NCBI GenBank assembly: GCA_046293555.1
Contig: JBKBOT010000025.1
Span: 1-21,637 of the forward strand
Source of the DNA: Pyrobaculum sp.
GTDB taxonomy: Archaea; Thermoproteota; Thermoprotei; Thermoproteales; Thermoproteaceae
Direction of reading: 5' to 3'
DNA length: 21,637 bases
Below the pieces are notes generated by a model. That model saw only the letters and a program-made list of their open reading frames with translations. It was not told the DNA's origin and made no database searches. This document shows, in pieces, positions 1 through 20,630 of the stretch. The position numbers and the translations under genes are program-made. Positions within the stretch are counted from its first letter, which is position 1, and each line of letters opens with the position of its first letter.

Positions 1-865
1 CCCTCATGTCGTCTATGTTGACCTCGTCGCAGTTGTAACATGTGAAGCTTAGGCCATAGAGCCCATACCACGCGTGTTCTCTCACCAGCTTGGCCAGGTT
101 GTGTCTGTCGACCACCTCCGCGATATATGGCTTGATCGCCTGCCAGACGGCAGCCCTCACTTGCCTCAACCATCTTTGGTATTTCTCACGCGCCTCCTCC
201 TCCATTATGTACGCCTCTACGTCGTGTACGCGCCTCAACTCTGTGGACAACTCCTCTAGCTGTTTGTATATGTAGTATATGTAGTCTAGCGCTGTGGCGG
301 CCGCGCGCGCCTCTTTGTACAGCCTGCATAGCGGCGAGTCATCGCACCCATCCCCAACCACGTCCCCCAACAGCGACGCTATGAAAACAACTGAGTTCTT
401 CGCATCGTTTGTGTAACGTCCCTTTATTGCCATTTCGAGTAGGTCAAATTCCCTCTTGATTTCTGCCAACTTTCTCCGTAGGTATTTTTCCGCCCTGTCC
501 TTTTTTGCCTCCCGTATGATCTCATCCAGGATTGGCCGCGTCTTTGAGAACTTAACCGCTATGTCGTATATTGTCTCCTTGAGCTCTGACATCACCCCAT
601 CGATTTTGGTCAACGCCCAGCCGATAAGCTCGCTGACTTGATGTGAGTCTATGTGGTTGCTTAGATACATGACTTCAAACTTGTCTGAGATGTTGTACAA
701 CACGGCCTCCGCCAACTCAACGTCTTTGATATACGTGCCATACCCCCCGCGGAGCTTTCGTTTTAATTCGACCCACCTCGATGCCTTTTTTGCGATGTTC
801 CTCGCACGTGTGGAGATATCCTCTACCAGCTTGCGAATCCTTCCGCTACGCCTCTTGACGGCCAT
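1..865 (-). CDS. Distant, C-terminally extended member of the basic-tag helical protein family (3'-partial, runs off window)
   Basis: Not in the ORF track. Hand translation from ATG 865 is open to the window edge: MAVKRRSGRIRKLVEDIS...DDSPLCRLYKEARAAATALDYIYYIY...CYNCDEVNIDDMR. The basic N-terminus and the PL..LY...LDYIY segment resemble the family C-terminal block. Overlaps the upstream gene end by 20 nt. Confidence 0.8.
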   Translation of the reverse strand, partial: MAVKRRSGRIRKLVEDISTRARNIAKKASRWVELKRKLRGGYGTYIKDVELAEAVLYNISDKFEVMYLSNHIDSHQVSELIGWALTKIDGVMSELKETIYDIAVKFSKTRPILDEIIREAKKDRAEKYLRRKLAEIKREFDLLEMAIKGRYTNDAKNSVVFIASLLGDVVGDGCDDSPLCRLYKEARAAATALDYIYYIYKQLEELSTELRRVHDVEAYIMEEEAREKYQRWLRQVRAAVWQAIKPYIAEVVDRHNLAKLVREHAWYGLYGLSFTCYNCDEVNIDDMR

Positions 866-1619
866 TGTGTTTATACGCCCGTAGTTTTGCCGCAGCTTCA
901 GACAAACGCTCCATGTGGGTATATATCTGCCTCATGGCGGCGAGCATTTTCGACGTCACGTCGGCCTTGTGGTAAAGCACGGCGAATTTTTTCGACAGGC
1001 GCCACCTAGCCCGCTGCCCGTCATCGCCGCGTTCAAGCGATTTGATTATATCGCCTATCGCCCTCTTTATCTGCGGCAGGGTTGCGCCAAGGATCTCGTC
1101 CGCCGCGGCCATATCCCTATCGAGCATCTCCATCTGGCGGGCCAACACGTCGAAGTGTTTTTCCAGCTTCCGCATCGCCTTGGCCGTGTTTTCGGCATGG
1201 TACCTCTTAACCCCCTCCCAAATGGCCTTTGAGATGCCGCGCCACATCCTCAAAAGTCTATACACAGGCACCTGCGTAATGCCTTGTATGTTCCGCCTGA
1301 TGATGTCGATGCCGCTCATGACATCCCCCACCAGTCTGTCTACATACTCCACGTTTGTGTATAGAGTCGGGTCTTTATAAGCCTCCTCCAACCTCTTGAC
1401 GAGGTTGCCCAACACAACCCTCCACCACCCTGTGTACTTGTCCACAAGCCTGGCCGTTGCGTTCAAGACGGCAGGCGGGACGGACTCCTTCCACCCGCCA
1501 GTCAGTGCGCTATGTGCGACACGTGCCGCGGCGGCAAGCTCCCCAAGCCTCCGGCGGACCTCCTCAGACCTGTCGACATTCTCCCTCTTGCCCTTCCCCC
1601 TACGCCTCCTTACAGACAC
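846..1619 (-). CDS. Basic-tag helical protein family member (257 aa)
   Basis: GTG at 1619 is 32 nt from the promoter motif and gives MSVRRRRGKGKR. Family motif LEEAYKDPTLYTNVEYV. Confidence 0.85.
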   Translation of the reverse strand: MSVRRRRGKGKRENVDRSEEVRRRLGELAAAARVAHSALTGGWKESVPPAVLNATARLVDKYTGWWRVVLGNLVKRLEEAYKDPTLYTNVEYVDRLVGDVMSGIDIIRRNIQGITQVPVYRLLRMWRGISKAIWEGVKRYHAENTAKAMRKLEKHFDVLARQMEMLDRDMAAADEILGATLPQIKRAIGDIIKSLERGDDGQRARWRLSKKFAVLYHKADVTSKMLAAMRQIYTHMERLSEAAAKLRAYKHNGRQEA

Positions 1620-1638
1620 GTCTGCCAGCACACATGGC

Positions 1639-1651
1639 TTTATATACGTCA
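1639..1651 (-). promoter_or_regulatory. TGAYG-TATA promoter copy (TGACGTATATAAA)
   Basis: Matches consensus TGAYGTATWTAWA; GTG start at +32. Confidence 0.85.
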
Positions 1652-1696
1652 TCTTTTAACGATGGTTTTAATAACGCTGGTGTGTGTACATCTATA

Positions 1697-2179
1697 GTGA
1701 AGACCATAAGCAAGGCCGAGGACCGCTGCAATAAATTCGCCGTGGTTCAAGCTGGTGAAAAGTATTACTACGTGAGGAGTCCTAAATACGACATCTGTTG
1801 GGATATCGACGAGCCGCGTGTGTTCTCCAGGCTTGTGATCCCCATGCATACGCCATATGACGTCGCAGCGCTTGTGGAGGGCAACAACGAGGCCGTGAGG
1901 CGTGACCTACATGAGGTGGCGTCTAAGGTGGCAGAGGTCTTGGACATGGACGCAGCGGCAGTTACGACGTTTGTAGAGGAGGTGTTTAAAAACCCGCTTG
2001 GGGCCATCGGCGATTTCTCAGACATATGGCTCAAGGCAGTGTTAGCCGCCACAGACGAGGCGCGTTACCTCCACGAGCTCGAGCTGTTGAAGCTGGCGTT
2101 TCTACGCAGAGCGTTAAAATTAGTAAAAAGACGCGACGTTATGACTATAGATATGGTGAAAGCGTACTCTAGGGGTTAA
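1697..2179 (+). CDS. Hypothetical protein (~160 aa)
   Basis: 3' part of track ORF 1457..2179. GTG 1697 follows TTTTAATA (1666-1673); the upstream extension overlaps the opposite-strand gene. Start uncertain. Confidence 0.7.
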   Translation: MKTISKAEDRCNKFAVVQAGEKYYYVRSPKYDICWDIDEPRVFSRLVIPMHTPYDVAALVEGNNEAVRRDLHEVASKVAEVLDMDAAAVTTFVEEVFKNPLGAIGDFSDIWLKAVLAATDEARYLHELELLKLAFLRRALKLVKRRDVMTIDMVKAYSRG

Positions 2180-3107
2180 CGATTCTTTTCCTCCAAGTCT
2201 TTGTGTCAGGGTTGAACCGAAAGCCCATTTTTTTCAACGTCTCCACAGTCTCTCTGAACTTATCCTCCGGAAGCCCCCTGTTTATCCTCACCACAACCTC
2301 ATCATCTGCATATACGTAATCCACCGGGAGTTTTCTGAGCTCATCCTCCAAGTCTTTTCTCTCCCCTGTCTTGTCCACATTGAAGATATAGTAGTCTACA
2401 ACGTATGGCTCCCGCCTGCATAAAATACGCATGAAGTTGTCATAGTACAAAAAGCCACAACGTTTGAACATAACGCCAATTGCGTCTAATAGCCGCAACA
2501 ACGCCTTTGCATCGTATTTGTACTCAATTTCCATCTGTCGATTGCGGTCAAAAAACTTCGCGATGGTGTACTTCTCCACGCCTTTCTCCACCTGCTCTTT
2601 TACGAGGCTGCGGAGGGGTTCAATCTCTTTCACAACCTCGAATTTTACGGCTAGTTTTTCATGGTCGCTCGGCTCCTTTGTCTTCTCTGTGGGGTGAGAT
2701 GCGATTTTTTTCACCACGGCCTGTCTCCCGCCAGACGTGATCACGGCGTGGTCTTCATATGTAGCAACCTCGACCGGCCCCTCCCCCACGGCAGCCCTCA
2801 CCTTGTCCAAATCTATGTAGAACACATCGCCGTATATGTACTCCTCAAACGCCTTTATGTCAGAAAACGGAGATTCTGTAAATGCGACGATGGCGTATAT
2901 GTTGTCTCCAGACGTCTTGATCTGGAGTCCGTTTGCTGTAAACAACATCTTCGCCATGTTGTTCACCACAGCGGCCGCGTTGAGCATATCTAAAAACACC
3001 CCGCCGTCTCTATGCTTGGCGTAGCCAAGCACCTGTTGCCTTTGAATGGCGTCTTCCACACGTCTTGCGCTTCCTGCCTTCTTCCTACGTTTCTTCCTTA
3101 CAGACAC
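2169..3107 (-). CDS. Diverged PCNA (sliding clamp)-like protein with basic N-terminal tag and extra C-terminal domain (312 aa)
   Basis: DGGVFLDMLNAAAVVNNMAKMLFTANGLQIK...AFEEY...FYIDLDKV and YKYDAKALLRLLDAIG...VDYYIF follow the PCNA N- and C-terminal patterns by eye. C-terminal LKKMGFRFNPDTKTW module. GTG 3107 at +32 from the motif gives MSVRKKRRKK. Confidence 0.6.
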   Translation of the reverse strand: MSVRKKRRKKAGSARRVEDAIQRQQVLGYAKHRDGGVFLDMLNAAAVVNNMAKMLFTANGLQIKTSGDNIYAIVAFTESPFSDIKAFEEYIYGDVFYIDLDKVRAAVGEGPVEVATYEDHAVITSGGRQAVVKKIASHPTEKTKEPSDHEKLAVKFEVVKEIEPLRSLVKEQVEKGVEKYTIAKFFDRNRQMEIEYKYDAKALLRLLDAIGVMFKRCGFLYYDNFMRILCRREPYVVDYYIFNVDKTGERKDLEDELRKLPVDYVYADDEVVVRINRGLPEDKFRETVETLKKMGFRFNPDTKTWRKRIVNP

Positions 3108-3126
3108 ATCTTCCCACACCTAGATA

Positions 3127-3139
3127 TATATATACGTCA
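3127..3139 (-). promoter_or_regulatory. TGAYG-TATA promoter copy; its TGA is the stop of 3137..3907
   Basis: TGACGTATATATA; GTG at +32 (3107). Confidence 0.85.
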
Positions 3140-3907
3140 CGAAGCTTGCGAGGCGTCAACTTGGCGCAATAGCTCCTCCGCATATTTCTTCATATATCTA
3201 ACCTCTCCGTATATAAGCTGTAGGATGTCTAACACGGAGACGTGTGTATATGCCGACTTACATATATCATACAGCTTGACGTAGAGAGGTCCCTCTACCG
3301 TCTCCCCCCAGTGGTCTGGACTACAGATCGAGACATCCTTTGCGCCCATCGCCTCTACTAACCCCCACTCTATATTGTTTACGACCTTGTGCTTTATTTC
3401 CGCCACGATGCGTATGCCCTCCATCGCGTCCACGGAGCGCACCTTGGCCAACAGTTTTTCCACCTCGTCGAGGGCCTTCTCCATTTCCGCCAGCCGTATG
3501 CGCAAATGGTCTGGCTCCGCCACCTCCCGGGCCTCCCTCAAGGCTTGACGCACCCCCGCCAGCCATCTGTTTGTAGATGTGTACATCGCCCTCACCATTT
3601 CCCGCATTATGCGATCCGCAACATCGATTGTCTCCACAGCCAGCTGTCGTATGTAATCAACATCTCTATACAACTCTGGCGTGTAATACGCCCTCTCGAC
3701 CTTGTCTCGAAGCTGATATATCATGAAGTCCCACATGTCCATCTTACTGCCAAACCGCCTGCGCAACTCCCTGTATATTTCTGGAGACATCCGCTTGACG
3801 CCATCTTTGAAGAATTTCATCGACTCGATGGACTTATTTACCTCGTGAACCATCTTGTTAAACGCCTCGCGGACCTTCCCATAACGACGCCTCCTCTTTA
3901 CTGACAT
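3137..3907 (-). CDS. Basic-tag helical protein family member (256 aa)
   Basis: MSVKRRRRYGK; VERAYYTPELYRDVDYI; EGPLYVKLYDI; ATG at +32 from the motif. Confidence 0.9.
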   Translation of the reverse strand: MSVKRRRRYGKVREAFNKMVHEVNKSIESMKFFKDGVKRMSPEIYRELRRRFGSKMDMWDFMIYQLRDKVERAYYTPELYRDVDYIRQLAVETIDVADRIMREMVRAMYTSTNRWLAGVRQALREAREVAEPDHLRIRLAEMEKALDEVEKLLAKVRSVDAMEGIRIVAEIKHKVVNNIEWGLVEAMGAKDVSICSPDHWGETVEGPLYVKLYDICKSAYTHVSVLDILQLIYGEVRYMKKYAEELLRQVDASQAS

Positions 3908-3926
3908 ATGTGTCTACAACCACGGC

Positions 3927-3939
3927 TTTAAATACGTCA
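3927..3939 (-). promoter_or_regulatory. TGAYG-TATA promoter copy (TGACGTATTTAAA)
   Basis: ATG at +32 (3907). Confidence 0.85.
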
Positions 3940-3980
3940 TTTTTTTCGATGGCTTTATCTATGCGGATTTCTGTGGATAT

Positions 3981-4538
3981 ATGTCAAACCAAACCCCCCA
4001 GACCCAGTCTCAAGAGGACTATGTGGACATGGTGATACGTGTCTACAACGTAAGTTACGCTATCGATAGAATTGCAGAGGCGATTGGCAGATATACAAAC
4101 ATCTGGCACGTCACCTCTTTGCCCGAGGCGTGTGGCAAAGACAAAGAGCTGTGTGATAAGCTGGGCATCTACATTGGCCAGCCACCACGGGAGGGGGTTG
4201 TAACTCTCGATAAAACGAGAGGTATCTACTGGGATCCCAGAGCCATGGTTAAAAATGCTGCGATCTTAATGGCTGAAAAGCTCAGGTTTAACTTTGGCGA
4301 TGTCGTGCGTGGCATTGCATACCTGGCGTTTTTAAATGCGTTTAGAACCGCCCACCTCCTTACCCACGTCATACGCTTCTACCACTATCGCAGCAAAAGA
4401 AAAAAAGACTTTCACGCAGGCATCGCATTACAAATAATACGCCACCAGCTGAGACGTATGGACCCCGGGTTCAAACTGTTAGTAGCTCTAGACAGACGTT
4501 TCGCCACCTGGCTGGTCCGACGGGGGAAACTCCAATAA
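3981..4538 (+). CDS. Hypothetical protein (185 aa)
   Basis: Clean ORF; TTTATCTA begins 27 nt upstream of the ATG; a T-run follows the stop. Confidence 0.75.
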   Translation: MSNQTPQTQSQEDYVDMVIRVYNVSYAIDRIAEAIGRYTNIWHVTSLPEACGKDKELCDKLGIYIGQPPREGVVTLDKTRGIYWDPRAMVKNAAILMAEKLRFNFGDVVRGIAYLAFLNAFRTAHLLTHVIRFYHYRSKRKKDFHAGIALQIIRHQLRRMDPGFKLLVALDRRFATWLVRRGKLQ

Positions 4539-4564
4539 CCCTCTTTTTCCCCTCCCCCATCCCC

Positions 4565-4738
4565 TTGTGGGTCTTGGAATATATGGCATGACGCAACCCG
4601 GAGGCGCTGGCTGACGTCGTCGTGCCGCTGGCAGTTGACTTCGGCCCCCGCAGAAAGGCGGAGCCGGACGACGCGTATAGACGTGCCGTCGAGGCTGTGA
4701 GACGTACAGCGAAGGAGGTCGGCGTTGTGAGGGAGTAG
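4565..4738 (+). pseudogene. Possible gene remnant with an internal stop
   Basis: Frame reads LWVLEYMA*RNPEALADVVVPLAVDFGPRRKAEPDDAYRRAVEAVRRTAKEVGVVRE*. Protein-like, with TGA at 4589 and a T-run terminator after it. Confidence 0.35.
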
Positions 4739-4777
4739 CGACAGGCTTTGTGTCCCCCTTTTTTTGCTTCCGAAAAG

Positions 4778-4790
4778 TGACGTATATATA
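4778..4790 (+). promoter_or_regulatory. TGAYG-TATA promoter copy
   Basis: TGACGTATATATA; GTG at +32 (4810). Confidence 0.85.
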
Positions 4791-4809
4791 CCTCCATGTC
4801 TTACACCAC

Positions 4810-5100
4810 GTGCCACGTAAGGTTAGAAGGGCGAGGAGGAGGTACACGAAGGAGGTTTATAGAAACTGGGTGGTTATCGAAGAGCTAGACCCAGACGAGG
4901 GCCGTATGAGCTACGTAATCCACAGAGATGGCACTGTGGAAGTCCAAATCTCGCTGGAACGTACGACATATGTATATCGCGTGCCAAAAGAGTTGTTCGA
5001 AAAGGCCAAGACAATGAAGCCGAGGGAGTGGATCAAGCTGTTTTACAACTCGCCGCGTGAGTTTCAATACGGGAAATTCAACGGGGAGGTATTCTATTAA
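4810..5100 (+). CDS. Small basic-tag protein, tandem paralogue A (96 aa)
   Basis: MPRKVRRARRRY; shares YRVP.EL.EKAKTMKPREWI.LFY.SPR.F with 5188..5481. Confidence 0.85.
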   Translation: MPRKVRRARRRYTKEVYRNWVVIEELDPDEGRMSYVIHRDGTVEVQISLERTTYVYRVPKELFEKAKTMKPREWIKLFYNSPREFQYGKFNGEVFY

Positions 5101-5136
5101 GGAGTAGTGAGGGAAGTGGCTTAGCCTCGTCCCACC

Positions 5137-5144
5137 TTTTTTTT
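5137..5144 (+). terminator. Oligo-T archaeal terminator candidate
   Basis: T8 run between the stop at 5100 and the next promoter; similar runs at 4759-4765 and 10366-10372. Confidence 0.45.
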
Positions 5145-5155
5145 CTTCTGATTAG

Positions 5156-5168
5156 TGATGTATATAAA
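5156..5168 (+). promoter_or_regulatory. TGAYG-TATA promoter copy (TGATGTATATAAA)
   Basis: ATG at +32 (5188). Confidence 0.8.
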
Positions 5169-5187
5169 CTATTGTGTCTCCCTCCAC

Positions 5188-5481
5188 ATGTCACGTAGGG
5201 TTAGAAGGGTGAGGAGAAGATTTAGGAAATCAGAATATGAAAACGTAGTGCGCATCGAGGAGATAAACCCCTCTGGGTCTACTACGATATATAGAGTTTA
5301 CAACGGCGGTATTGTGAAAGTCTACACAACGGGAGGCGGACTGTATGAAATATATCGTGTACCAAGGGAGCTATATGAGAAGGCAAAGACAATGAAGCCA
5401 AGGGAGTGGATCGAACTGTTTTACAGATCACCACGGAAGTTCCTGGGTCATATAGGAACTGATGTATTTATTGATGAATGA
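5188..5481 (+). CDS. Small basic-tag protein, tandem paralogue B (97 aa)
   Basis: MSRRVRRVRRRFRK; paralogue of 4810..5100. Confidence 0.85.
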   Translation: MSRRVRRVRRRFRKSEYENVVRIEEINPSGSTTIYRVYNGGIVKVYTTGGGLYEIYRVPRELYEKAKTMKPREWIELFYRSPRKFLGHIGTDVFIDE

Positions 5482-5530
5482 CGTTTAAGTTACTACGTTA
5501 AAAATAATTTAAATACACACATCTTTTTAC

Positions 5531-6400: not shown

Positions 6401-6410
6401 GGGCCGAGTT

Positions 6411-6627: not shown

Positions 6628-7128
6628 ATGGGCAGGTGGGACAGAGGGGTGGACTTCGAGACCATGTACGTCCTCATTACGAGGAAAATGAAGCTGGACA
6701 AACGCAGCCGTTGTTACTTCGCAATATTGCTCACACAGCTGAGAAACGGAGCGCGTGTTAGCGAGGCGGTTAGGGCGTTTCAAACGTGGCTCCGCAGCGG
6801 CAGGGCTGAAGTGGAGGTGAAAGTAAGCAAGCGGAAGGATGTAGTCCGCCTCATAGTGATACCCACGGAGGTACTCGACATGAAGGCCGAATGTGTAGAG
6901 CTGGCAGTTGTAAACGAAAAAAAGCTTGTGGAAAGGCTAAAGGTGTTCGCAAAGCGGCGCCTCGGCGTAAATACCCACAGCCTGCGGTATGCCTTCATCA
7001 CGTATTTGTTGCGGCAGGGCGTGAGCCCCGCCATAGTGGCCAAGATCACACAACACGCCAAGCTGGACCACATCCTCACTTACACACAACAGAAGGCCGC
7101 AGAGGATTTATTAAGGCGGCTTGTGTGA
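6628..7128 (+). CDS. Tyrosine recombinase, catalytic domain only (166 aa)
   Basis: Catalytic residues R (NGARVSEA), K (SKRK), HxxR (THSLRYAF), H (TQHAK) and Y (ILTYT); no N-terminal core-binding domain. Confidence 0.9.
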   Translation: MGRWDRGVDFETMYVLITRKMKLDKRSRCYFAILLTQLRNGARVSEAVRAFQTWLRSGRAEVEVKVSKRKDVVRLIVIPTEVLDMKAECVELAVVNEKKLVERLKVFAKRRLGVNTHSLRYAFITYLLRQGVSPAIVAKITQHAKLDHILTYTQQKAAEDLLRRLV

Positions 7129-7138
7129 CGTATATATA
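7126..7138 (+). promoter_or_regulatory. TGAYG-TATA promoter copy; its TGA is the recombinase stop
   Basis: TGACGTATATATA; GTG at +32 (7158). Confidence 0.85.
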
Positions 7139-7157: not shown

Positions 7158-9212
7158 GTGGCTATACGCAGACGCCGTAGGAGGGGGGTTTACGTTGGGA
7201 CAGGTCTGCTCAACATAGATTATGAAGACCCGTATGTCATCACGCAGGCGTACAACTTGGCGAGGCGGCTGTATAAAAGCGGCATACCGCCATACGAAGT
7301 GACTATTTCCGGCATTGTGGACGCTATTTACATACACTTGAGAGGGCTCAAGCCTGTTACCTTACAGCTTGATCGGTACTTCCAGCGGCAGTTCCTCTTG
7401 AGATATATCCAATCTCCGGAGTACAGGGAGGCGTTGAGAAGGGCATTGGGGAACCCAAAGCTTGCTAGAGAATATGCGGCCAAGCTGTTGGCGATGTTTT
7501 ACGGCAGTGAGATACTTCAACGTGTCAAAAAGTGGGCTAGGGGGTTGACGTTAGAGGAATATATAGACAAGGCGGCTAAGCTCGAAAGAGAGCTTAGGGA
7601 GAGGTATTTAGACAGCGATGTAAGTAGCTATCTGGACCTCGCTGTGGAGGCAAAAAGGCTGTATGATAAGCTAGTTGACGTCTGGAGACGTGAGGAGGGT
7701 AGACTAAAATCGTCGCTAGTCAAGCGGTTGGAGGAAGTCGAATTTGACATCGAGAAGACGGGTAGACAAATGGATCGCGAGACTGCTGTGGTATTTCGTT
7801 CTCTCAGTGATGAATTGGGGAAGGCCTTAAGAAAAGTTGAAGCCAATATGTTGAAAATACTTAATGACTTTGATAGAGTTGAGTTTCACATACAACACAG
7901 GGGCCAAAAGTTGATGGATGTGGCTAGGCAGTTGGAGTTTGTATACGAGGTGTTTCCACATGTGAACATTGAGGACATCGTCAATGCGGTCAGCAATGCG
8001 CGTTTTGAAATAGAATATGTTGTCAACGAGCTTGGCGATTACTACAAGAGTTTCGATGAGTACCTAGACATGGTTAATGAGGCGCGTAACCAGTTGGCCA
8101 GACTGAGTGGCGAAAATAGAGAGAGGGTGAGACATCTGGAGGTGGGTCTAGACAAGGTGGAGGAGGCCGTAAGGGGTTTGTCTGAAGAGTTCAAGAAGTT
8201 TGTAGACAAGTACTCAGCCACAGTCAAACACCTCACCTCTGTCGAAGGCAGCATAAGGAGCTCGGCCAAAAGTGGCATAAAGAACATGTCCACGCTTGCC
8301 GCCGGAATTCCGGCAGGCGTCGTAGAGCTTAGGGAGGCGGCTAATGAGGTTGAGAGATTGTACAACATGTTGAAAGACGTACAGAAGGTGGTGGATACAT
8401 ATATAGATGACATATTGGTTGAGTATGGTTACACCAAGGGGTTGTTTACAAAATACTACGAGTTGTTGAAAATGAAGAAGGAATTAGAACGGCAGTTGGA
8501 GTGGTTCAGGGTCACGTCTAACGAAATGTCGAAAGGATCTTTCGAGAAGTCTATCAAGTTGAACGAAGACGTCATGAAGTACGTGGAGAGGATTAGGGAG
8601 GAGTTTGGACCGCGTGCGGCCATGTACGCCGCCACATTTCTGTTGGCAAATACCGTACACCGGCGTGAGCACCATCTAGATAGGTTCAAGGATTTTTTCA
8701 ACTTCGTGGACAACGTCAGTGCGGCAGGCAAGGCCGGCAAGTATTACGTCCTCGTCGACCGCTCTGGATCTGTCATGTATAACACCTACGATGGCGTGAT
8801 ACCTATATCTTGGACAACCGCACTTGCCTACATCTTGTGGAGAGACGTCGGCGATGTGGTAGTCAGATTTTTCGACGAGGTGGTCCACCCGCCTGTGGGG
8901 GACAAACAAGAATTCATAAAGTACATGTTACCGCCGACGTCCAGCAACATCGATATCATCAAGGCGCTGAGGGTGGCGTTAAACGAGGCATCGAGGGATC
9001 GAACGCTTGTGGTAGTTATGGACAGTTACGGCATGGAGCAACTGAGGAAAAACATGAAAACGGCAAAACCCCTCCTAAAGTTAGTGAGGAAGTACTTCAA
9101 AGACGTGAAGTTCGTAGTAATGTCGGAAACCTACAAGAGGGGCAAACGGGTCTTCATGATAGACAAACTGTCTGACGTCAACAAGCTGAGGGGGGTGGTG
9201 GAGTGGCTCTAG
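7158..9212 (+). CDS. Coiled-coil protein with partly degenerate C-terminal vWA domain (684 aa)
   Basis: Corrected start GTG gives MAIRRRRRRGV. LLNIDYEDPY block and YYVLVDRSGS...ISW.TAL.Y...VRFFD..VH.P are shared with 14509..17226. The GGT loop is replaced by TSSNI. Confidence 0.85.
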   Translation: MAIRRRRRRGVYVGTGLLNIDYEDPYVITQAYNLARRLYKSGIPPYEVTISGIVDAIYIHLRGLKPVTLQLDRYFQRQFLLRYIQSPEYREALRRALGNPKLAREYAAKLLAMFYGSEILQRVKKWARGLTLEEYIDKAAKLERELRERYLDSDVSSYLDLAVEAKRLYDKLVDVWRREEGRLKSSLVKRLEEVEFDIEKTGRQMDRETAVVFRSLSDELGKALRKVEANMLKILNDFDRVEFHIQHRGQKLMDVARQLEFVYEVFPHVNIEDIVNAVSNARFEIEYVVNELGDYYKSFDEYLDMVNEARNQLARLSGENRERVRHLEVGLDKVEEAVRGLSEEFKKFVDKYSATVKHLTSVEGSIRSSAKSGIKNMSTLAAGIPAGVVELREAANEVERLYNMLKDVQKVVDTYIDDILVEYGYTKGLFTKYYELLKMKKELERQLEWFRVTSNEMSKGSFEKSIKLNEDVMKYVERIREEFGPRAAMYAATFLLANTVHRREHHLDRFKDFFNFVDNVSAAGKAGKYYVLVDRSGSVMYNTYDGVIPISWTTALAYILWRDVGDVVVRFFDEVVHPPVGDKQEFIKYMLPPTSSNIDIIKALRVALNEASRDRTLVVVMDSYGMEQLRKNMKTAKPLLKLVRKYFKDVKFVVMSETYKRGKRVFMIDKLSDVNKLRGVVEWL

Positions 9213-11967: not shown

Positions 11968-11968
11968 A

Positions 11969-12558: not shown

Positions 12559-13614
12559 ATGAGGCTTGTGGTTAAGAACTTCGGCCCTATCGTAGAGGCC
12601 GACATAGAGGTTTCGCCGTTTGCCCTCTTTGTCGGCGAGAGCGGCTCTGGTAAATCCATAACGGCTAGGCTTCTATATGCAATACGCAACATTTTTGGCG
12701 ATGCGGTACGTGACCTATATGTCAGAGGCGCTGAAAAGTCTGTCGATGAGGTGGTAAACAAGCTCAACTTCGCTGAAGCGTTTAAGATGTATCTCGGCAT
12801 GGTGCCAAGAGGCGGCTATATGGAGTATCAAGATAACGATGTGAGTTTAACAATACGTATCGATGGTAACGTTAAGGTGGAGAGGCTCGAGCTGTCCGAC
12901 AGCTACAGACAGCGTATAGAGGCCGCGAGGGATGTAGAAAAAGGCTTACACCTCTTTACTGCATTCTGTATGCCTGCAGGCAGGAGCGGCCTTGTGGACA
13001 GCTTCCCGCTTTGGAACTTCACAAATAAACGCTTGTTGGAAATAGACGTAAAGCTAACCACGATAATTCCAGTATCTATGTGCGTCAAGATGTTTTATCA
13101 CGCCTTAGAGCTATTAAGAAACGAGCAAGGGCCTCTGGCCAGCGTTGTAGAGCCGTTTGAGGAAATCCTAGGCGGCAGAGTCGTTATGACGAAAAATGGA
13201 ATTGTGTATAACGGCATTGAGATCAGATATGCGCCCACGTATGTGAAAGAGTTCGCGCCTATCTATATGATCACAAGAGAGCTTTTGAAGCCAGGCGACT
13301 TTGTGGCAATAGAGGGGCCAAGCGCGAACATGCACCCAGAGGTGCAAGCGGTGATGGCAGACTTCCTCACAAAGCTTGCGGAGGCAGGCGTGTATCTCGT
13401 AGTAGAGGCACAAGATGAGGCCTTCCTCTGGAGGATTTCCAATTTGGCAAAACTGGGCAGGTTGAAACTAAACGCGTATTTATTCAAGCGCGGAAGGCCT
13501 GTAGAGAGGCTTAAGGAGTTAAACGGCATACCGACGTACAACGAGGTGTTTAACAAGCTTTACGACGAATATGTGAAGGCGTCGTATTCATCGCGACGAC
13601 GTGGGGGACAGTAG
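12559..13614 (+). CDS. ABC-superfamily (AAA_15/AAA_21-type) ATPase with degenerate motifs (351 aa)
   Basis: MRLVVKNFGPI start; Walker A GESGSGKS; MPAGRSGL; Walker B region FVAIEGPSANMHPEVQ; H-loop position VVEAQDE. Confidence 0.8.
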   Translation: MRLVVKNFGPIVEADIEVSPFALFVGESGSGKSITARLLYAIRNIFGDAVRDLYVRGAEKSVDEVVNKLNFAEAFKMYLGMVPRGGYMEYQDNDVSLTIRIDGNVKVERLELSDSYRQRIEAARDVEKGLHLFTAFCMPAGRSGLVDSFPLWNFTNKRLLEIDVKLTTIIPVSMCVKMFYHALELLRNEQGPLASVVEPFEEILGGRVVMTKNGIVYNGIEIRYAPTYVKEFAPIYMITRELLKPGDFVAIEGPSANMHPEVQAVMADFLTKLAEAGVYLVVEAQDEAFLWRISNLAKLGRLKLNAYLFKRGRPVERLKELNGIPTYNEVFNKLYDEYVKASYSSRRRGGQ

Positions 13615-13935
13615 CCTTTCCGCAAACCTCACTAAGTTTTCTACGTGTTGTGCTAATTTTTTCACGCGTCTTGATTCCAACTTGCCCTCCATATAGCCTA
13701 AGTCGTATAGCGTTGTAGCTGCGTTCCAACAAACGGCGATAAACTCGCCGTATCTTTTCGTCAACATGGTTACAGCCATACCGAAGTCCATATTGCCATC
13801 TCTCAGTTGTGTTGTGGCGATCGCCCTCACGGCCTCTTCTGCCGCCTTGTATAGTTTTAACGACGCGATAACTGGACTCTTATCAATAAGCGTAATGCCC
13901 TCCTCTAGGGTCGCCCTTGCTTTTTGTAATGACAT
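13588..13935 (-). CDS. PaREP1-family (HEPN-fold) protein (115 aa)
   Basis: ASLKLYKAAEEAVRAIA and WNAATTLYDLGYMEGKL follow the PaREP1 pattern ASEK.YKAAEE.VKALA / W..A..LH..GF.E. Confidence 0.75.
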   Translation of the reverse strand: MSLQKARATLEEGITLIDKSPVIASLKLYKAAEEAVRAIATTQLRDGNMDFGMAVTMLTKRYGEFIAVCWNAATTLYDLGYMEGKLESRRVKKLAQHVENLVRFAERLLSPTSSR

Positions 13936-14261: not shown

Positions 14262-14512
14262 AGAGGCGAGCGAGGTCGAAACAGATTAATATTACTGAAA
14301 TACATTTCGATACTGAGTACATATGTCCTACATGCGGCGAGCCGTTAGTATTCTTCGAGGATCAAGGCGTGTTTTTCGGCTGTAAGAATTGCGAAAAGTT
14401 CATAAGAATAAAATATAGTGAAATATGGCGGAATTTCGTCAGAGGGAAAAAGCTCAAATGGGACAAGCTGATGAGAGAGTTATACTTACGTTATATCGAC
14501 GACGAGGGCTAG
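14249..14512 (+). CDS. Small C4 Zn-ribbon protein (87 aa)
   Basis: CPTCGEPL...FGCKNC; overlaps the upstream stop; basic N-terminus MGDVKRRARSK. Confidence 0.75.
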   Translation: MGDVKRRARSKQINITEIHFDTEYICPTCGEPLVFFEDQGVFFGCKNCEKFIRIKYSEIWRNFVRGKKLKWDKLMRELYLRYIDDEG

Positions 14513-17226
14513 AGGTTTTTCAACGCCTCCCTGAGGTTTTCCTCAGTCGGCTCCTTTATCTTAACTGTCGGCACGTTTTTCTCAATTGTCTTATTGTCGC
14601 CGCCGATTATTATCGCCTTCACCTCCCTAAAGGCCTTCTTGGCCTCCTCAAGCAGCTCTGGGTCTACGATATCATAACCGTCTGTGACCAATATGAGCTT
14701 ATAGTCCTTTTTCGCCTCCTTGATCGCGACCTTCAACGCGTCGTTTATTGACGTGCCGCCTTCCGGCATTGCGGTCAGTAGGTATCTCACGATCTCCCTC
14801 TTGTCTTTTATGGGGTCATGCACCTGGGCGTCGAAAAACCTGACTGTCATCTTCTCCGGCTTGCCGTGCGCCATAATTGCGTACACCAGTGCGGTGGCCC
14901 AAGATATCGCAGGCACACCTGCGTACTCCTCGGCCATGGAGCCCGACCGGTCAATTAAGACGTAATATCTATCCCTTTCCTCTATATGCAGCTCTTTTAC
15001 GGTAAGCGATTTGGTGGCCAGCTTGTATTTAAACAGCTCCGGCGATGCTTGTGCTATGGCGCGGCTTGTGGGCGTCATATATAGCAACTGGCTCAGAGAG
15101 GTCATTTTCGTCACGCCCCCCGGCACGCCGAGTCTATCTGCTTTTTTTATCTCCTCATAGATGGATGCCCCTTTGGACGCAAGCTTGATAAACTTCTTAA
15201 GCCGTTCTACAAGCCTCTTGCGCTCAGCTGCGTCGCGTTCGCTTAATATTAACGCGGCAGCTTGAATGCCTGCCGATAAGCCGCCAAACAGTTGCCTCAA
15301 ATCCTCTGCAAGCTGTTGGACGTCCACCTCGCCCATACGCATCCGCTCCACCTCCTCGGAGAGACGTCTGGCGCCTCTAGTTGCTCGTTCTAAGCCATGT
15401 CTCAATGAACTAATCTGATCTGCGAGCTGCCTAAGGCTCTCGCCCGCCTGCCGCTCCATCTGCCTTTGGATCTGTTCCGCCAGCTCTCTGACCTGCCGCC
15501 GTAGGTCCTCCGGCAGCGACCCCTCCAGCTGCCTCAGCCGTTGGAGCAAATCTTGAAGCCCCTGTCCCCCTCTACGCAATGCGTTTTCAATGTCTTGAAG
15601 CAACTGGCTAAGCGCTTGCACGGCGTCAGCCTGTTGGCCGCCGTGTTGACCTACGCGTGGGCTTTGTTGCTGATCCTCACCAGCCCGGCCCTGGCCGCCC
15701 CCAGCCCGGCCGTCTGCCTCACGCCCGCCGGCCTGCCCAAGTGGACACACACCGCCGGGACACGTGTCCTCCATTTGCACTCCCCCCCGCCTGCGGCGTC
15801 TTGTTGTCGACTCGCCGACCCTCTGTGCATGCTGCGGCTGGCCTGCGGCTTGTTGCATCCCTTGTTGCATCTGTTGTAGCCGCCGCCGCAGTTCTTCTAT
15901 CTGGCGTTGTATGTCCTGCATTTGCTGTCCCCCGCCTTGTTGCATATGCCGCTGTGCACGTAGGCGTCTCCGCGCTTGTTTTTTGTATTGGTTCTCCATA
16001 TCTAACAGTCTATTCCAGACGGTAGCGATTTGGTCGCGTATGTCGGCGAGGTCTTTTTTGGTTCTGTCGACGGCCTTCTCCAACTGGCGGCTTGCCCTCC
16101 TACCCACGCCCCTCAGCTGACTGACTGTATCGCTCGGTGCCTGGTTTTGCTGTAACGTTTGCTTGATCCCCTCAAGCTCGTTGGAGAATTGCGATGCGCG
16201 ATTTCCAATTGCCAACATTTCATTTCTCAGCTCCTGTAGCCTCTTCCTAATTGCTTCAAGGCTTTCACGGATCTCGCCCGTCGCCTCTGGAAGCAACCGC
16301 TCAGCCTCCCTGCGTAGCCTCTCTACCATTGTCTCCAAGTCCTCCATCTGCTTCGCGATGTCGGATGATGCTGAGGTGATGCTTTGGGTGTTTTTCAACG
16401 CCCTGTCTATAGACTGACTCACATTGTCAACGTCGCCGGCCCTAGCCAGATTCGTCGCCTCAGTTAAGTTATATCGTAGGCCGTCCATTGCGCCCACTAT
16501 CGTACTTCTATAGTCACTTGATATATTACCCGCATAATCGTAGGCCCTCTTTGTGAGGTGTGCCAAGTATCTCGCCTTGATGTGCTCCGGCGCGCCCTCC
16601 AACATCCTCATCCCCTCTCTGCGGAGCTCCTCCAGCCTCTGGCTCGCCTCTTGTTGGTATCTGTTGAGCTCGTTCAGCATCATGTCGTACATCTGCCTGA
16701 TTGGTCTATACAACGCGGCGTGTTCCTCCAACGGTGCATCCAGCGGCTTCTCCCTAATTGCCTTCAAAAGCTTGGAGAGATCCTCCATGTATCCCTTAAA
16801 CCGCTCGTCTACTTTCGAAAGCCAGTTGAGCATTTTGGACAGATCTCTGGCCAGCTCCTCGGCCATGTGTCTAATTATGAACTTAGCCGCTATGTCTCTG
16901 GCCTTTGGGTAGTCGTATTTGGTCTCCTCAAGCAGCTTTTCGAACTCCTTCGACTTTATATGTTCAATAAGCCGCTCATAGAACTTCGTATAGTCGCGTT
17001 CCTCCCCCAGCTCCGGGCCGCGGTAGTGCGAAAAAAGCACATCTGCGAGCTCCGGCGTGGTCAACCTGCCCAGCGAAACGCCATGTCTCTGTAGATGTCT
17101 GGCGAGGTGAAACGTATGCGAAAGAGTGTACGGATCCTCGTAGTCGACGTTTAGGAGGATCCCAGGCGGGATATCTGGCTCCCTATCCTCCTTCTTTTCT
17201 TTCCGCCTCTTTGTGGCTCTGGTCAT
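14509..17226 (-). CDS. Large coiled-coil protein with intact C-terminal vWA (MIDAS) domain, ViaA/CoxE-like (905 aa)
   Basis: YYVLIDRSGSM (DxSxS), PEGGTSI (T) and LILVTDG (D); long heptad-rich middle with a Gln/Gly linker; N-terminal ILLNVDYEDPY; start MTRATKRRKEKK at +32 from the motif. Confidence 0.9.
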   Translation of the reverse strand: MTRATKRRKEKKEDREPDIPPGILLNVDYEDPYTLSHTFHLARHLQRHGVSLGRLTTPELADVLFSHYRGPELGEERDYTKFYERLIEHIKSKEFEKLLEETKYDYPKARDIAAKFIIRHMAEELARDLSKMLNWLSKVDERFKGYMEDLSKLLKAIREKPLDAPLEEHAALYRPIRQMYDMMLNELNRYQQEASQRLEELRREGMRMLEGAPEHIKARYLAHLTKRAYDYAGNISSDYRSTIVGAMDGLRYNLTEATNLARAGDVDNVSQSIDRALKNTQSITSASSDIAKQMEDLETMVERLRREAERLLPEATGEIRESLEAIRKRLQELRNEMLAIGNRASQFSNELEGIKQTLQQNQAPSDTVSQLRGVGRRASRQLEKAVDRTKKDLADIRDQIATVWNRLLDMENQYKKQARRRLRAQRHMQQGGGQQMQDIQRQIEELRRRLQQMQQGMQQAAGQPQHAQRVGESTTRRRRRGGVQMEDTCPGGVCPLGQAGGREADGRAGGGQGRAGEDQQQSPRVGQHGGQQADAVQALSQLLQDIENALRRGGQGLQDLLQRLRQLEGSLPEDLRRQVRELAEQIQRQMERQAGESLRQLADQISSLRHGLERATRGARRLSEEVERMRMGEVDVQQLAEDLRQLFGGLSAGIQAAALILSERDAAERKRLVERLKKFIKLASKGASIYEEIKKADRLGVPGGVTKMTSLSQLLYMTPTSRAIAQASPELFKYKLATKSLTVKELHIEERDRYYVLIDRSGSMAEEYAGVPAISWATALVYAIMAHGKPEKMTVRFFDAQVHDPIKDKREIVRYLLTAMPEGGTSINDALKVAIKEAKKDYKLILVTDGYDIVDPELLEEAKKAFREVKAIIIGGDNKTIEKNVPTVKIKEPTEENLREALKNL

Positions 17227-17245
17227 ATCACAATACGTCTACGGT

Positions 17246-17258
17246 TATATATACGTCA
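17246..17258 (-). promoter_or_regulatory. TGAYG-TATA promoter copy
   Basis: TGACGTATATATA; ATG at +32 (17226). Confidence 0.85.
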
Positions 17259-17292
17259 CTGTTTGACGCCATACAGCGGCCAGCTGTATACA

Positions 17293-18051
17293 TCACTCCT
17301 CTTCGGCTATATCATGTATATGGTAAAGATAGCCATCCACATCCATAACGACCTTGCGGACTTTATACATCAGATATAACACCTCGACGATCGCGTACAG
17401 TTTTTCATATAGCTTCAACATCTTGGCGTAGAGAGGTCCCTTAGACATAACGTGTTTCTTGTGTTTAAGCGGCTCGTCCACACCAATCATGTTTTGCAGT
17501 TGTATCAACACGCCGGCGAGTTTTCCATCCAGCTCTTCCAAAGCCTCTGTGATCTCAAAACTATTGATATCCCCTCTGACTTTTTCCATCCATTTTTTTA
17601 TCTCCCCTACCAGCCGCTCCACCTCTCTCCACCGCTCTAATAGCCTTTCCCTGTCCGGACTGTTGTCCACCTCCTTTTTGATCTCATGTATCACATCTAG
17701 CGTCTTCTCAAGTCTTTTCAACTCGGCCCTCATCACGTCGTCTGCCCTCATATCTATTTCAAACAGTGGGTCTTTGAGGTCTTCGGCAAAGCCGGTCACG
17801 TAGTTTCTATCTCCATACAGCCTCGGCCTTAGGTACACGTAATTCAACTCGTCCACCAAATCATACAGCCTGTCTTCAAACCAGTGGAGGACGCCAAGTC
17901 TGACCAACTCCTCCACGGCCTTTTTGCTCATATCCTTCTTCACCCTCTCCAAAAATTTGACCTCATTGCGTATGTACCTTATGGCATCGCCCAGGAGCTC
18001 GCGGACCTCCTCAGCCGTGGCTTTGTCGAGCTTGCGCCTCCTTGTGGACAT
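17293..18051 (-). CDS. Basic-tag helical protein family member (252 aa)
   Basis: MSTRRRKLDK; LNYVYLRPRLYGDRNYV; KGPLYAKMLKLYEKLYA. Upstream TATATATATA (18068-18077) lacks the TGACG element. Confidence 0.9.
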   Translation of the reverse strand: MSTRRRKLDKATAEEVRELLGDAIRYIRNEVKFLERVKKDMSKKAVEELVRLGVLHWFEDRLYDLVDELNYVYLRPRLYGDRNYVTGFAEDLKDPLFEIDMRADDVMRAELKRLEKTLDVIHEIKKEVDNSPDRERLLERWREVERLVGEIKKWMEKVRGDINSFEITEALEELDGKLAGVLIQLQNMIGVDEPLKHKKHVMSKGPLYAKMLKLYEKLYAIVEVLYLMYKVRKVVMDVDGYLYHIHDIAEEE

Positions 18052-18077
18052 CTCCCTATACGTCTGATATATATATA

Positions 18078-18833
18078 CTATTCATCGAAAGCCTTCTCTA
18101 TCTCGTATACATGTGATACTATCATCGCAACGCTGGCGTAGATATAGTCTAAAAATTTGAGTGCCTCATACAGCGGGGCGACCTCATCGTAGAGCTCCAA
18201 CAGTTTGTCATACGGAGGCCCCATTTCCTCTATCTCCTCTCTTGGTCGGAGCCTCAAGCCAATCATAAGCTCCAAATTGTATACCACACCACCTAACATC
18301 TCAATTATTCCATATACCGTTGCATCATAGAACTCGGTGTGTTTGGACTCTTCTATCTTTTCTTTAATCCCTTTTATCAACCCCCTTATCGACGCCGCCC
18401 TTTCGACCAACCTCCGTTCTGTCGATGACTCGCGGCCTTGGCTCGATTCCAACTCCCTCATGACGTCATCCACAACATCCATGGCTTTGTCTATCTTGGC
18501 AAGCATGGCGTCTATCATGCTCTTAACTTTCGACTCTACGTAGGAGTTTACAGCTTTCGCCATCTCTACGAGTTTGGCCACATGTTCTCTATCTCTATAC
18601 AGCGCTGGGTCTAGATAAGTCCTCTCGAGTGTGTCCCTGATTTTGTATATATTTACCTCGATTTTCTCGAGAATGGTGCGGCCCAACCTCGCCAACTCCT
18701 TGACGGCTCTTGGACTCATCTCACGTTTGATCGAATTCCATGCATCAAGCTCCTCATCCACATAGTCAATGGCCTTCTTTAGCTGTCTGCGGACCTCTTT
18801 GGTGCTATCAGGCCTACGCCTCCTCACGGCCAT
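18078..18833 (-). CDS. Basic-tag helical protein family member (251 aa)
   Basis: MAVRRRRPDS at +32; LERTYLDPALYRDREHV; GPPYDKLLELY. Confidence 0.9.
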   Translation of the reverse strand: MAVRRRRPDSTKEVRRQLKKAIDYVDEELDAWNSIKREMSPRAVKELARLGRTILEKIEVNIYKIRDTLERTYLDPALYRDREHVAKLVEMAKAVNSYVESKVKSMIDAMLAKIDKAMDVVDDVMRELESSQGRESSTERRLVERAASIRGLIKGIKEKIEESKHTEFYDATVYGIIEMLGGVVYNLELMIGLRLRPREEIEEMGPPYDKLLELYDEVAPLYEALKFLDYIYASVAMIVSHVYEIEKAFDE

Positions 18834-18852
18834 ATCCACATGTGCCTATGGT

Positions 18853-18865
18853 TATATATACGTCA
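18853..18865 (-). promoter_or_regulatory. TGAYG-TATA promoter copy; its TGA is the stop of 18863..19108
   Basis: TGACGTATATATA; ATG at +32 (18833). Confidence 0.85.
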
Positions 18866-19108
18866 CTTTTTTGGCCTCGGCGTGGTTAGTGGGAGGGGGA
18901 CTATGTCGTCCGCCAGCTTGTACGCCATGGTTTCAAACATCTCGAACCGTAACTTGTCGCGTTTATGTATTCCGGCCTCGCGCCTCACCCCCCTCAGTTG
19001 TTTGAGGATGGTCCTTATGTTATGTGCCGCCTTAAGTAGGTTATTCCGAATTGTCGCAACCTTCCCCTCACCTCTTTCTCTGTTTGGCTTACGCCTCCTT
19101 ACTGCCAC
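18863..19108 (-). pseudogene. Truncated family member (81 aa, N-terminal third only)
   Basis: MAVRRRKPNRER...LRFEMFETMAYKLADDI aligns with LKFDLWEMSLYELLDKI of the neighbour, then breaks just before the AY.DP.LY motif. Confidence 0.7.
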
Positions 19109-19127
19109 ATTCCCACGCGTTTGTGTG

Positions 19128-19140
19128 TATATATACGTCA
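19128..19140 (-). promoter_or_regulatory. TGAYG-TATA promoter copy directly abutting the TAG of 19141..19869
   Basis: TGACGTATATATA; GTG at +32 (19108). Confidence 0.85.
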
Positions 19141-19869
19141 CTATTTGACGTATTGCAACAACCCGGCCAGCCGTGCCTTGAGGTCATCTATCGCCTCATA
19201 GTACATATAGTCGATGTAGAAAATCACGTCTTCAGTCACGACTGCCACCTCATAGAGTTTTGTCAACTTGTCACGTAGCGGAGTGTCTTCATGCGTAAGG
19301 TATTCAAGCATGACCCCCAAACTGCTTGTCACTGTACGAACTGGGGAACGTAGTTTTTCCAACGTAGAAATATCCCTAGTGACCTCTTCAGCTAGTTTCT
19401 TCAAGTCAACAAACGATGTATCGACGTCTGACATATATCCTGCTAGCTTCCATCGGTCCGGTCTTTTGGATATCTCAAGCCATATCTCACCCACCAGATC
19501 GGACATCCTCAAGAGTTTGTTCAACGCATTGCGTACCGCCTTCTGCATGTCTTGAGATATTTTGTTTACAACGTCTATCGCCTCCTCTGCCAACGTGTGG
19601 ATGTAGTCAACGTCTGTATACAGCTTTGGGTCGTAATACGCACTATCGATCTTATCCAACAGCTCGTACAAACTCATTTCCCACAAGTCGAACTTAAGCC
19701 CAGTGATGCCAACCTTGGCCAGCCCCCTGCGGACTTCCGACGGCATCTTACGCTTCGCTTTACGCAACACGCGAAATGTGTTGTATATAGAGTTTGTTAT
19801 CGAATACAACAGATATCGAATCTCATCAACCTTTTCCCTATCTACTCTCTTCTTCCTCCTTACTGTCAT
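19141..19869 (-). CDS. Basic-tag helical protein family member (242 aa)
   Basis: MTVRRKKRVDREK at +32; IDSAYYDPKLYTDVDYI; TPLRDKLTKLYE. Confidence 0.9.
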   Translation of the reverse strand: MTVRRKKRVDREKVDEIRYLLYSITNSIYNTFRVLRKAKRKMPSEVRRGLAKVGITGLKFDLWEMSLYELLDKIDSAYYDPKLYTDVDYIHTLAEEAIDVVNKISQDMQKAVRNALNKLLRMSDLVGEIWLEISKRPDRWKLAGYMSDVDTSFVDLKKLAEEVTRDISTLEKLRSPVRTVTSSLGVMLEYLTHEDTPLRDKLTKLYEVAVVTEDVIFYIDYMYYEAIDDLKARLAGLLQYVK

Positions 19870-19888
19870 ATACACATACGTCTACAGT

Positions 19889-19901
19889 TATAAATACATC
19901 A
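19889..19901 (-). promoter_or_regulatory. TGAYG-TATA promoter copy (TGATGTATTTATA); its TGA is the stop of 19899..20630
   Basis: ATG at +32 (19869). Confidence 0.8.
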
Positions 19902-20630
19902 TTTAATGGCGTCTTCTATCTCGGCCACAAGGGCCGAGATTTCTCCAAGTTGACTGAATATGGAATACAAGACGTAGATCACGCCGACGGATGCGTACAG
20001 CCTCTCGTATAGTTTCAACATCTTGGCGTATAGAGGCCCCTTGGCCACCACGCGTTCTCTGTCTTTTCCAAGCGGGTCGTCTACATTCATTATACGTCTC
20101 AATGCCACCATCATGCTCGCGATGGGGTATGTGGATTGGTATATATGCCACATGTCGATGGGGTAGATCTTCTTTATCTCCTCCGCCGCCTCCACAGCCT
20201 CTCTCCACAGCCCCAGTAGCCTCTCTCCGTCCGGACTGTTGTCTATCTCTCCCCCGATTTCGCCCATCGCCTTGTCCACAGCCCTCTTGAGCCTCTCCAG
20301 CTCTGCGTCTGCCGCCCTCCCCACCTTTATCGATGTGTTGAAAACATAGTCTCTAGCCATCTCTACGAGTTTGGCCACATGTTCTCTATCTCTATACAGC
20401 GCCGGGTCTAGATATGCCCTCTCCATGGCGTCCGCCAGCCTGTGTAGCCTTACCTCAAACAGCTCGAGGTCTATATCCCCAACCCTGGCCAACTCCTTGC
20501 GTACCTCCGGCCTCACGCCGCGCCTCCATGCATAGAGCTCACGCGCCAACTCCCTTAAGTCCCCCGCAGCCTTTTCCAACAGCCTACGGACCCTTCTCGT
20601 CCTCCAATCTTTACGCCTCCTTACGGCCAC
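19899..20630 (-). CDS. Basic-tag helical protein family member (243 aa), mosaic
   Basis: GTG at +32 gives MAVRRRKDWRTRR; MERAYLDPALYRDREHV; KGPLYAKMLKLYERLYA. Confidence 0.9.
   Translation of the reverse strand: MAVRRRKDWRTRRVRRLLEKAAGDLRELARELYAWRRGVRPEVRKELARVGDIDLELFEVRLHRLADAMERAYLDPALYRDREHVAKLVEMARDYVFNTSIKVGRAADAELERLKRAVDKAMGEIGGEIDNSPDGERLLGLWREAVEAAEEIKKIYPIDMWHIYQSTYPIASMMVALRRIMNVDDPLGKDRERVVAKGPLYAKMLKLYERLYASVGVIYVLYSIFSQLGEISALVAEIEDAIK

Follow-up and report, generated by a model that had tools for sequence, protein, structure and literature searches.

An orphan family of helical proteins behind a portable promoter and arginine-tip cassette on a CRISPR-targeted element of Pyrobaculum

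What role can be played by eight related proteins of about 250 amino acids (aa), encoded in two clusters on one strand of a mobile element and lacking any known relative? The question is raised by a 21,637-nucleotide (nt) stretch of Pyrobaculum sp. DNA (contig JBKBOT010000025.1, assembly GCA_046293555.1), called here the window, which is an entire 21.6-kb contig, one of 145 in the assembly. The initial annotation regarded the eight as a diversified set of structural, effector or anti-defence proteins. Our results describe them as an orphan family, found in one sample and of a kind already seen in Sulfolobus tengchongensis spindle-shaped virus 1 (STSV1) and Acidianus two-tailed virus (ATV). Most copies stand behind a portable cassette, composed of a stereotyped, predicted leaderless promoter, the start codon and an arginine-rich tip. 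This promoter class and the tags tilt the choice among the three roles towards virion cargo, and we tentatively propose that the family represents late-expressed, tag-addressed internal cargo, packed into virions together with DNA.

All eight open reading frames (ORFs) lie on the minus strand where they were first annotated, and each is recovered by a leave-one-out hidden Markov model (HMM), with the E-values given below; those of the six full-length members range from 1e-20 to 1e-43.

2..865, minus strand: distant member with a C-terminal extension, running off the contig end (E 3.9e-9)
846..1619, minus strand: member, 257 aa, with the tip VSVRRRRGK (E 1.4e-20)
3137..3907, minus strand: member, 256 aa (E 4.7e-26)
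17293..18051, minus strand: member of 252 aa, paired as the second gene with 18078..18833 (E 5.7e-43)
18078..18833, minus strand: member, 251 aa (E 2.3e-39)
18863..19108, minus strand: truncated member, 81 aa, retaining the tip and first helices (E 8e-6)
19141..19869, minus strand: member, 242 aa (E 5.3e-37)
19899..20630, minus strand: mosaic member, 243 aa (E 1.2e-43)

The copies have diverged to 22-36% pairwise BLASTP identity over the longer alignments, in agreement with a diversified family on a mobile element. The 81-aa member is indeed truncated, stopping before the conserved motif, and its E-value changes from 8e-6 to 0.005 once the basic tip is removed. All six full-length members contain the first motif in a loose form, YxxPxLYx[DN]xx[YH][VI], which none of the remaining 21,453 six-frame ORFs in the assembly possesses; 2..865 and 18863..19108 lack it. 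A second, C-terminal motif, GPLYxK, had been described as shared by most members, which is only loosely true because the exact form occurs in just three of the six full-length proteins, being altered in two and missing in 846..1619. Among these six, conservation reaches 58% at residues 1-9 and 50% in the motif loop, compared with 16-31% elsewhere. Five members follow each other in tandem and stop 66 nt upstream of a gene for a 905-aa vWA protein, as annotated. The gene 2..865, rightly seen as a distant and extended member, is the second of a pair with 846..1619 and has no promoter of its own. A ninth copy, partial and broken, is found on contig C83, and is 75% identical to 2..865 over 197 nt. 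A broken copy of 2..865 at L036:1070-1776 (minus strand) runs on into a CxxC-bearing domain, also seen on contig C96, which suggests that the full gene would be about 100 aa longer than the contig shows.

The initial annotation recognised no known family here, and no relative turned up among 28 related genomes, in 1.84 billion representative proteins or in libraries of folds. The family profile matched 0 of the 28 other genomes of the taxonomic family. An exhaustive profile search of the representatives, among which every member forms a singleton cluster, returned only the eight members and two marginal rows at E 7e-4; the latter, one of them named as a Zn-ribbon protein, were treated as coiled-coil noise. 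Word-indexed protein searches retrieved window proteins only. Pfam, PHROGs and PADLOC gave scattered weak matches, none of them consistent and no PADLOC family matched by more than one of the eight members; NCBIfam gave none, phage records held no match to the family, and a sequence search of PDB produced coiled-coil matches only. For two members, ESM Atlas contained no feature match, with query TM-scores below 0.5. The DNA of the window was found in one sequencing run, with no RNA run among those listed, and the contigs of this DNA run provided no usable variation among the differences listed.

Structure prediction portrays the two members modelled as helical bundles. The model of 17293..18051 is all-helical and elongated (predicted local distance difference test, pLDDT, 90; predicted TM-score, pTM, 0.85); its fold matches put a bundle of four helices at roughly residues 100-232, and in some of these matches the N-terminal helices are paired with the long final helix. 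Differing folds among members had been named as evidence that would count against one family; the two modelled members, 17293..18051 and the most distant 2..865 (AlphaFold2, pLDDT 81), share one predicted helix order, compared by order and not by coordinates, and so give no such sign. Fold searches found generic bundles only, with best Z-scores of 11.7, 12.5 and 14.7 tied among unrelated proteins. The four-helix bundle of the bicaudavirus core protein (ATV p131/p145) reached an hhalign probability of 0.3% and was unlisted in fold searches with whole models. The top Foldseek row for the family is AhlB (E 0.03, TM 0.35), accompanied by ClyA-family chains at Z 8-10, and could be taken to indicate membrane-active helical proteins of the ClyA/AhlB kind, serving entry or exit. 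We consider this very improbable: the matches lack significance and rank level with unrelated bundles, and no member has a clear membrane segment, the best 19-residue hydropathy being only 0.6-1.56.

The promoter motif, TGACGTATWTAWA, is located 32 nt before the start codon. It occurs at this offset in 25 scored starts and in at most five at any other. In its TGAYG-TATA form the predicted leaderless promoter precedes 23 of 60 leaderless-type starts of the element versus 0 of 394 host starts; since it was from the element that the motif was derived, the figure that carries information is the zero in the host. There are 19 exact matches in this assembly and at most one in each of 61 other genomes, and the lone matches in genomes G008 and G044 have no real gene behind them. 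Scans for promoter plus tag yielded 0 hits in viral contigs, 0 in genome contigs and one chance match in metagenomes; locus L051 proved unrelated. Within the window, the class includes the following promoters:

1639..1651, minus strand: TGACG-TATA promoter of 846..1619, 32 nt upstream of the start codon
3127..3139, minus strand: promoter of 2169..3107, its TGA being the stop codon of 3137..3907
3927..3939, minus strand: promoter of 3137..3907
7126..7138, plus strand: promoter of a 684-aa vWA gene, its TGA being the integrase stop codon
17246..17258, minus strand: own promoter of the 905-aa vWA gene
18853..18865, minus strand: promoter of 18078..18833, its TGA being the stop codon of the truncated member
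19128..19140, minus strand: promoter of the truncated member 18863..19108
19889..19901, minus strand: promoter of 19141..19869, a TGATG variant, its TGA being the stop codon of 19899..20630
20650..20662, minus strand: promoter of 19899..20630

Six of the eight members thus have a class promoter, the other two (17293..18051 and 2..865) being second genes of pairs, and in four genes the promoter TGA doubles as stop codon of the upstream gene. The class extends to both vWA genes, to proteins of 651 and 3775 aa and to a 97-aa two-helix membrane protein. TFB, PCNA and Cas8a2-like genes with a scored start have promoters outside the TGACG class.

The predicted promoter class goes with basic, arginine-rich termini on otherwise unrelated proteins. 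A basic N- or C-terminus is present in 18 of 23 promoter-class genes (13 at the N-terminus, a further five at the C-terminus), versus 44 of 394 in the host and 5 of 37 among the element's remaining genes; collapsed by paralogy, the tagged genes make up 8 of 12 lineages by our own count. Each of the eight family copies carries an arginine-rich tip. A literature search for arginine-rich tips in spindle-virus nucleoproteins turned up no paper. Class members without a tag are the proteins of 651, 3775 and 246 aa, the 97-aa hairpin and a protein of 229 aa that is interrupted by the end of its contig. Tagged genes outside the family include three in the window:

2169..3107, minus strand: 312-aa non-member within the first cluster, with the same promoter and a basic tip
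7158..9212, plus strand: host-derived vWA protein, 684 aa, with the added tip AIRRRRRR
14509..17226, minus strand: host-derived vWA protein, 905 aa, with a helical insert of about 480 aa, an added basic tip and an intact DxSxS motif

Host vWA and most of the fetched orthologues begin directly at a GALLNVDY-like motif, before which both element copies have a basic tip; by this comparison the tag is an addition to captured vWA genes. In 2169..3107, residues 244-310 correspond to a captured small host protein; the C-terminal 65 residues have counterparts, mostly at 53-67% identity, in 25 of the 28 other family genomes, and the N-terminal part is PCNA-like by eye, with no Pfam match. The genes 4810..5100 and 5188..5481 (plus strand) are tandem paralogs of 96-97 aa with a class promoter and RRVRR-type tips, and they have no family match.

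The same cassettes bear on how the array arose. A 61-nt repeat spanning the promoter and first codons occurs seven times, twice at 761-nt spacing, and we infer that the family expanded by recombination between promoter/first-codon cassettes. Traces in the sequences show that the array has been reshuffled by recombination between copies, as may be read from 19899..20630, whose N-half resembles 18078..18833 and C-half 17293..18051: residues 61-105 are 63-70% identical to the former, much of the C-half is nearer the latter in sliding windows, and the breakpoint is placed near residue 109 (MaxChi p 0.0008), close to the start of the C-terminal bundle. The ratio of nonsynonymous to synonymous substitution rates (dN/dS) over 21 member pairs is 0.37-0.93, with synonymous sites near saturation. 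Positive selection in the variable middle region, for which the annotation had recommended a dN/dS analysis, was rejected, the values being 0.3-0.7 in four of five pairs with the fifth saturated, a weak test near saturation.

On what kind of element does the family reside? The window is part of a mobile element that is CRISPR-targeted (clustered, regularly interspaced repeats that are short and palindromic) and, by its gene content, bears spindle-virus hallmarks. Of 281 host spacers, 30 match non-array contigs over at least 30 nt; five match the window, four with a TGG or TGA flank and two within members.

6628..7128, plus strand: tyrosine integrase of bicaudavirus type, 166 aa (phrog_9208, E 4e-46)
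17939..17981, strand not assigned: CRISPR protospacer within member 17293..18051 (41 of 43 nt match, TGG flank)
1..42, strand not assigned: CRISPR protospacer within distant member 2..865 (41 of 42 nt match)

This integrase shares 43-45% identity (E 1e-35 to 1e-42) with ATV ORF241 (43%), with the integrase of Sulfolobus monocaudavirus 1 (SMV1) and with STSV1 ORF56. Sister contigs C19 and C21, tied to the window by promoter class, shared genes and spacers, encode two DnaA-like ATPases (phrog_5484; E 3e-9 on C21, 6e-6 on C19) and two p529-like ones (phrog_9172). According to the profile issued by the international committee for virus taxonomy (ICTV), the DnaA-like ATPase constitutes the link between bicaudaviruses and fuselloviruses (PMC12662068). 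Further genes of C19 and C21 are primase-helicase, PCNA, TFB, Csa1, Cas8a2-like, TGT-like and dCTP deaminase genes, the TGT-like and dCTP deaminase genes being 40-49% identical to those of STSV1. The likeness to spindle viruses of the ATV type, drawn in the initial annotation, holds for the element because the integrase and sister-contig ATPases are of spindle-virus type; it does not hold for the family (hhalign below 1%). No paper on a Pyrobaculum or Thermoproteales virus of spindle shape or bicaudavirus-like type turned up in our literature search. The presence of duplicated primases points to more than one element.

Several other features of these contigs are recorded. Two separate sets of phrog_5484 and ATV p529-like phrog_9172 genes, at L030:7351-9868 and L032:12921-16205, lie beside small two-helix membrane proteins and are candidate spindle-virus morphogenesis modules, perhaps belonging to two elements. 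Seven Cas8a2-related paralogs on C21, C35, C50, C52 and C79 group by BLASTP, and those of them that have a scored start fall outside the TGACG class. Another eight-member paralog family (150-400 aa, no family matches) is spread over L034:1571-4837 and contigs C52, C66, C73, C21 and C26. Between the two clusters of the window there are an AAA_15-type ATPase with a C-terminal RRR tail (12559..13935) and a PaREP1 gene, and C35:5744-6562 contains a TFB-like gene, second to that of C21.

If the element were instead a large plasmid or transfer element, the basic tips might act as secretion or transfer signals of proteins delivered between cells. Type IV substrates with basic C-terminal signals are known, and the 97-aa hairpin of the promoter class has a weak match to CagC (VirB2-like; E 2.6e-4), which falls short of the cut-off. 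The 50 element proteins scanned, a subset of the total, matched neither a VirB4 nor a VirD4 family, and the integrase and ATPases are of spindle-virus type; we thus regard a transfer element as quite unlikely.

The proximity of the tandem array to the 905-aa gene had been compared with the vWA genes of ATV. A relative of this protein exists in 58 of 62 genomes of the order, this genome included. Its C-terminal part is 41% identical to the host copy, 26% to SMV1 ORF759 and, over a short stretch, 30% to ATV p892. In the vWA tree both element copies join the host copies (92/92, not starred, long branches), so that the resemblance to ATV in vWA is better explained by independent capture: the element genes would be lengthened captures of a host-type Thermoproteales vWA and not orthologues of ATV p892. 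At residues of about 440-545 the 905-aa protein has a linker rich in Gln and Gly, which includes a run of RRRRR and a CPGGVC motif and is missing from host orthologues. The 684-aa protein is about 50 residues short ahead of the DxSxS strand, and its GGT loop is altered; it is possibly an inactive adaptor. The family as a fragment of the vWA insert was rejected (hhalign 0.7%).

The same neighbourhood invites an explanation in which members are clients or co-factors of a vWA-MoxR chaperone that builds or remodels a helical scaffold, in the manner of ATV p387/p653/p800 with p618/p892, the host MoxR being borrowed. Five copies adjoin the 905-aa gene, promoter and tip are common to both vWA genes, DxSxS is intact and host MoxR adjoins host vWA; in ATV, moreover, p387 and p653 are paralogs that bind p618 (excerpts of PMC4124505). 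Yet tblastn detected no second MoxR outside the host locus in the assembly, the family shows no similarity to p387/p362/p653 (hhalign 0.3%) or to vWA inserts (0.7%), and the vWA gene has its own promoter. Complex prediction for member 17293..18051 with residues 18-400 and 600-905 of the 905-aa protein and Mg scored 0.00, evidence neither way. Such a role appears unlikely to us.

Our preferred reading, that of virion cargo, sees here a virus-specific multigene family, carried by a large element that resembles spindle viruses and has a host of Pyrobaculum type. The class promoter would then mark a late or structural class, and the tip would bind DNA or a packaging partner and thereby guide a soluble bundle of helices into the virion's nucleoprotein lumen, alongside the tagged vWA proteins. 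Inside, the copies could serve as proteins of the core or of a scaffold, and they might be set free in the next host, in which their divergent surfaces could contact different targets, as the internal proteins of T4 do. Published excerpts describe an SMV1 lumen in which accessory protein occupies about 3.7 times the DNA volume (PMC10589707), SMV1 virions that contained a vWA homologue (PMC4124505), and a short tag for internal proteins of T4, as in CTS and IPI (PMC9958956).

Several points weigh against virion cargo. No capsid protein was identified: hairpin candidates have the hydrophobic two-helix architecture, with E of at least 0.027 to the bicaudavirus small-membrane-protein profile, and ATV p131/p145 gave no match. 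What links the contigs is their promoter class, common genes and spacers rather than any overlap, and they may come from more than one element placed in the host bin. We fixed the tag rule once the data had been seen, and the host starts used for promoter and tag comparisons are motif-predicted. The tips also share nucleotides (GAGGCG), so that some of the conservation at the N-terminus could be due simply to copying of the cassette. Because net charge varies from -6 to +20 across members, a uniform DNA-condensing protein is not suggested.

Shared strong promoters are, besides, the published signature of early anti-defence genes (excerpts of PMC11065993), which also counts against late cargo. 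The main rival, possible though doubtful, is that members are early anti-defence or host-takeover proteins, each paralog tuned to its own host target, with a tip competing for nucleic acid or an acidic host surface. Both features published for such genes, a strong promoter with TATA box and B recognition element (BRE) and a regulatory sequence common within the genome, are seen here (excerpts of PMC11065993); the family consists mostly of single genes without homologues, six of eight with the class promoter, on an element that is CRISPR-targeted, two spacers falling within members, and it recombines into mosaics. The same promoter, however, drives the 651- and 3775-aa proteins, the membrane hairpin and vWA genes, Cas8a2-like candidate decoys use other promoters, and there is neither a sign of positive selection nor a consistent PADLOC family. 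Anti-defence and packaging can coexist, and if the anti-defence explanation is true, the family is a set of new anti-defence candidates.

Taken further, the cargo reading leads to a bolder proposal, to which we give only limited credence: in a large Thermoproteales spindle-type virus, one cassette (private promoter, leaderless start, poly-arginine tip) would time and address unrelated proteins to the lumen, including the family and captured host vWA adaptors without a MoxR of their own, as an archaeal counterpart of the T4 capsid-targeting sequence, the recombining paralogs being delivered cargo. A short tag and private promoter, visibly added to captured host genes, would amount to a simple, testable sorting rule and a possible tool for cargo loading.

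How does the family compare with known systems? STSV1 is a large spindle-shaped virus that likewise carries a short integrase, a TGT-like gene and dCTP deaminase, and its paralog groups (ORFs 1/5/7, 10/11/15 and 4/6/9) encode proteins some 150-320 aa long, the majority having an annotated TATA box to themselves. Its host order differs, and hhalign gives below 1% to all three groups. HMM scores of STSV1 ORF37 (19.9 bits, split over three pieces) and of ORF3 (16.5 bits, with the conserved motif not covered) are weak; they exceed 300 shuffles each, with no significant match in the motif. ATV offers a paralog family, p387/p362/p653, near a long vWA gene (p892, with MoxR p618) on a spindle-virus genome, but without sequence similarity (hhalign 0.3%; no match to the family HMM); here the vWA proteins cluster with those of hosts, and tblastn found no element-borne MoxR in the 145-contig assembly. 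Homology to the paralog families of either virus, which the initial annotation left undemonstrated for ATV, is thus unsupported, with probabilities below 1%. The promoter-defined anti-defence genes of archaeal viruses resemble the family as mostly single, homologue-less genes with a shared strong promoter (excerpts of PMC11065993), and differ in that the class here comprises very large proteins and vWA genes, has basic tags and lacks Cas8a2-like genes. The T4 capsid-targeting sequence (PMC9958956, in part) is similarly a short terminal tag on dissimilar proteins, and a tag of that kind could address the virion interior; the analogy is one of working principle, not of homology, for the tag here is poly-arginine and stands at either end. 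By analogy, the family works like the paralog arrays of large spindle viruses.

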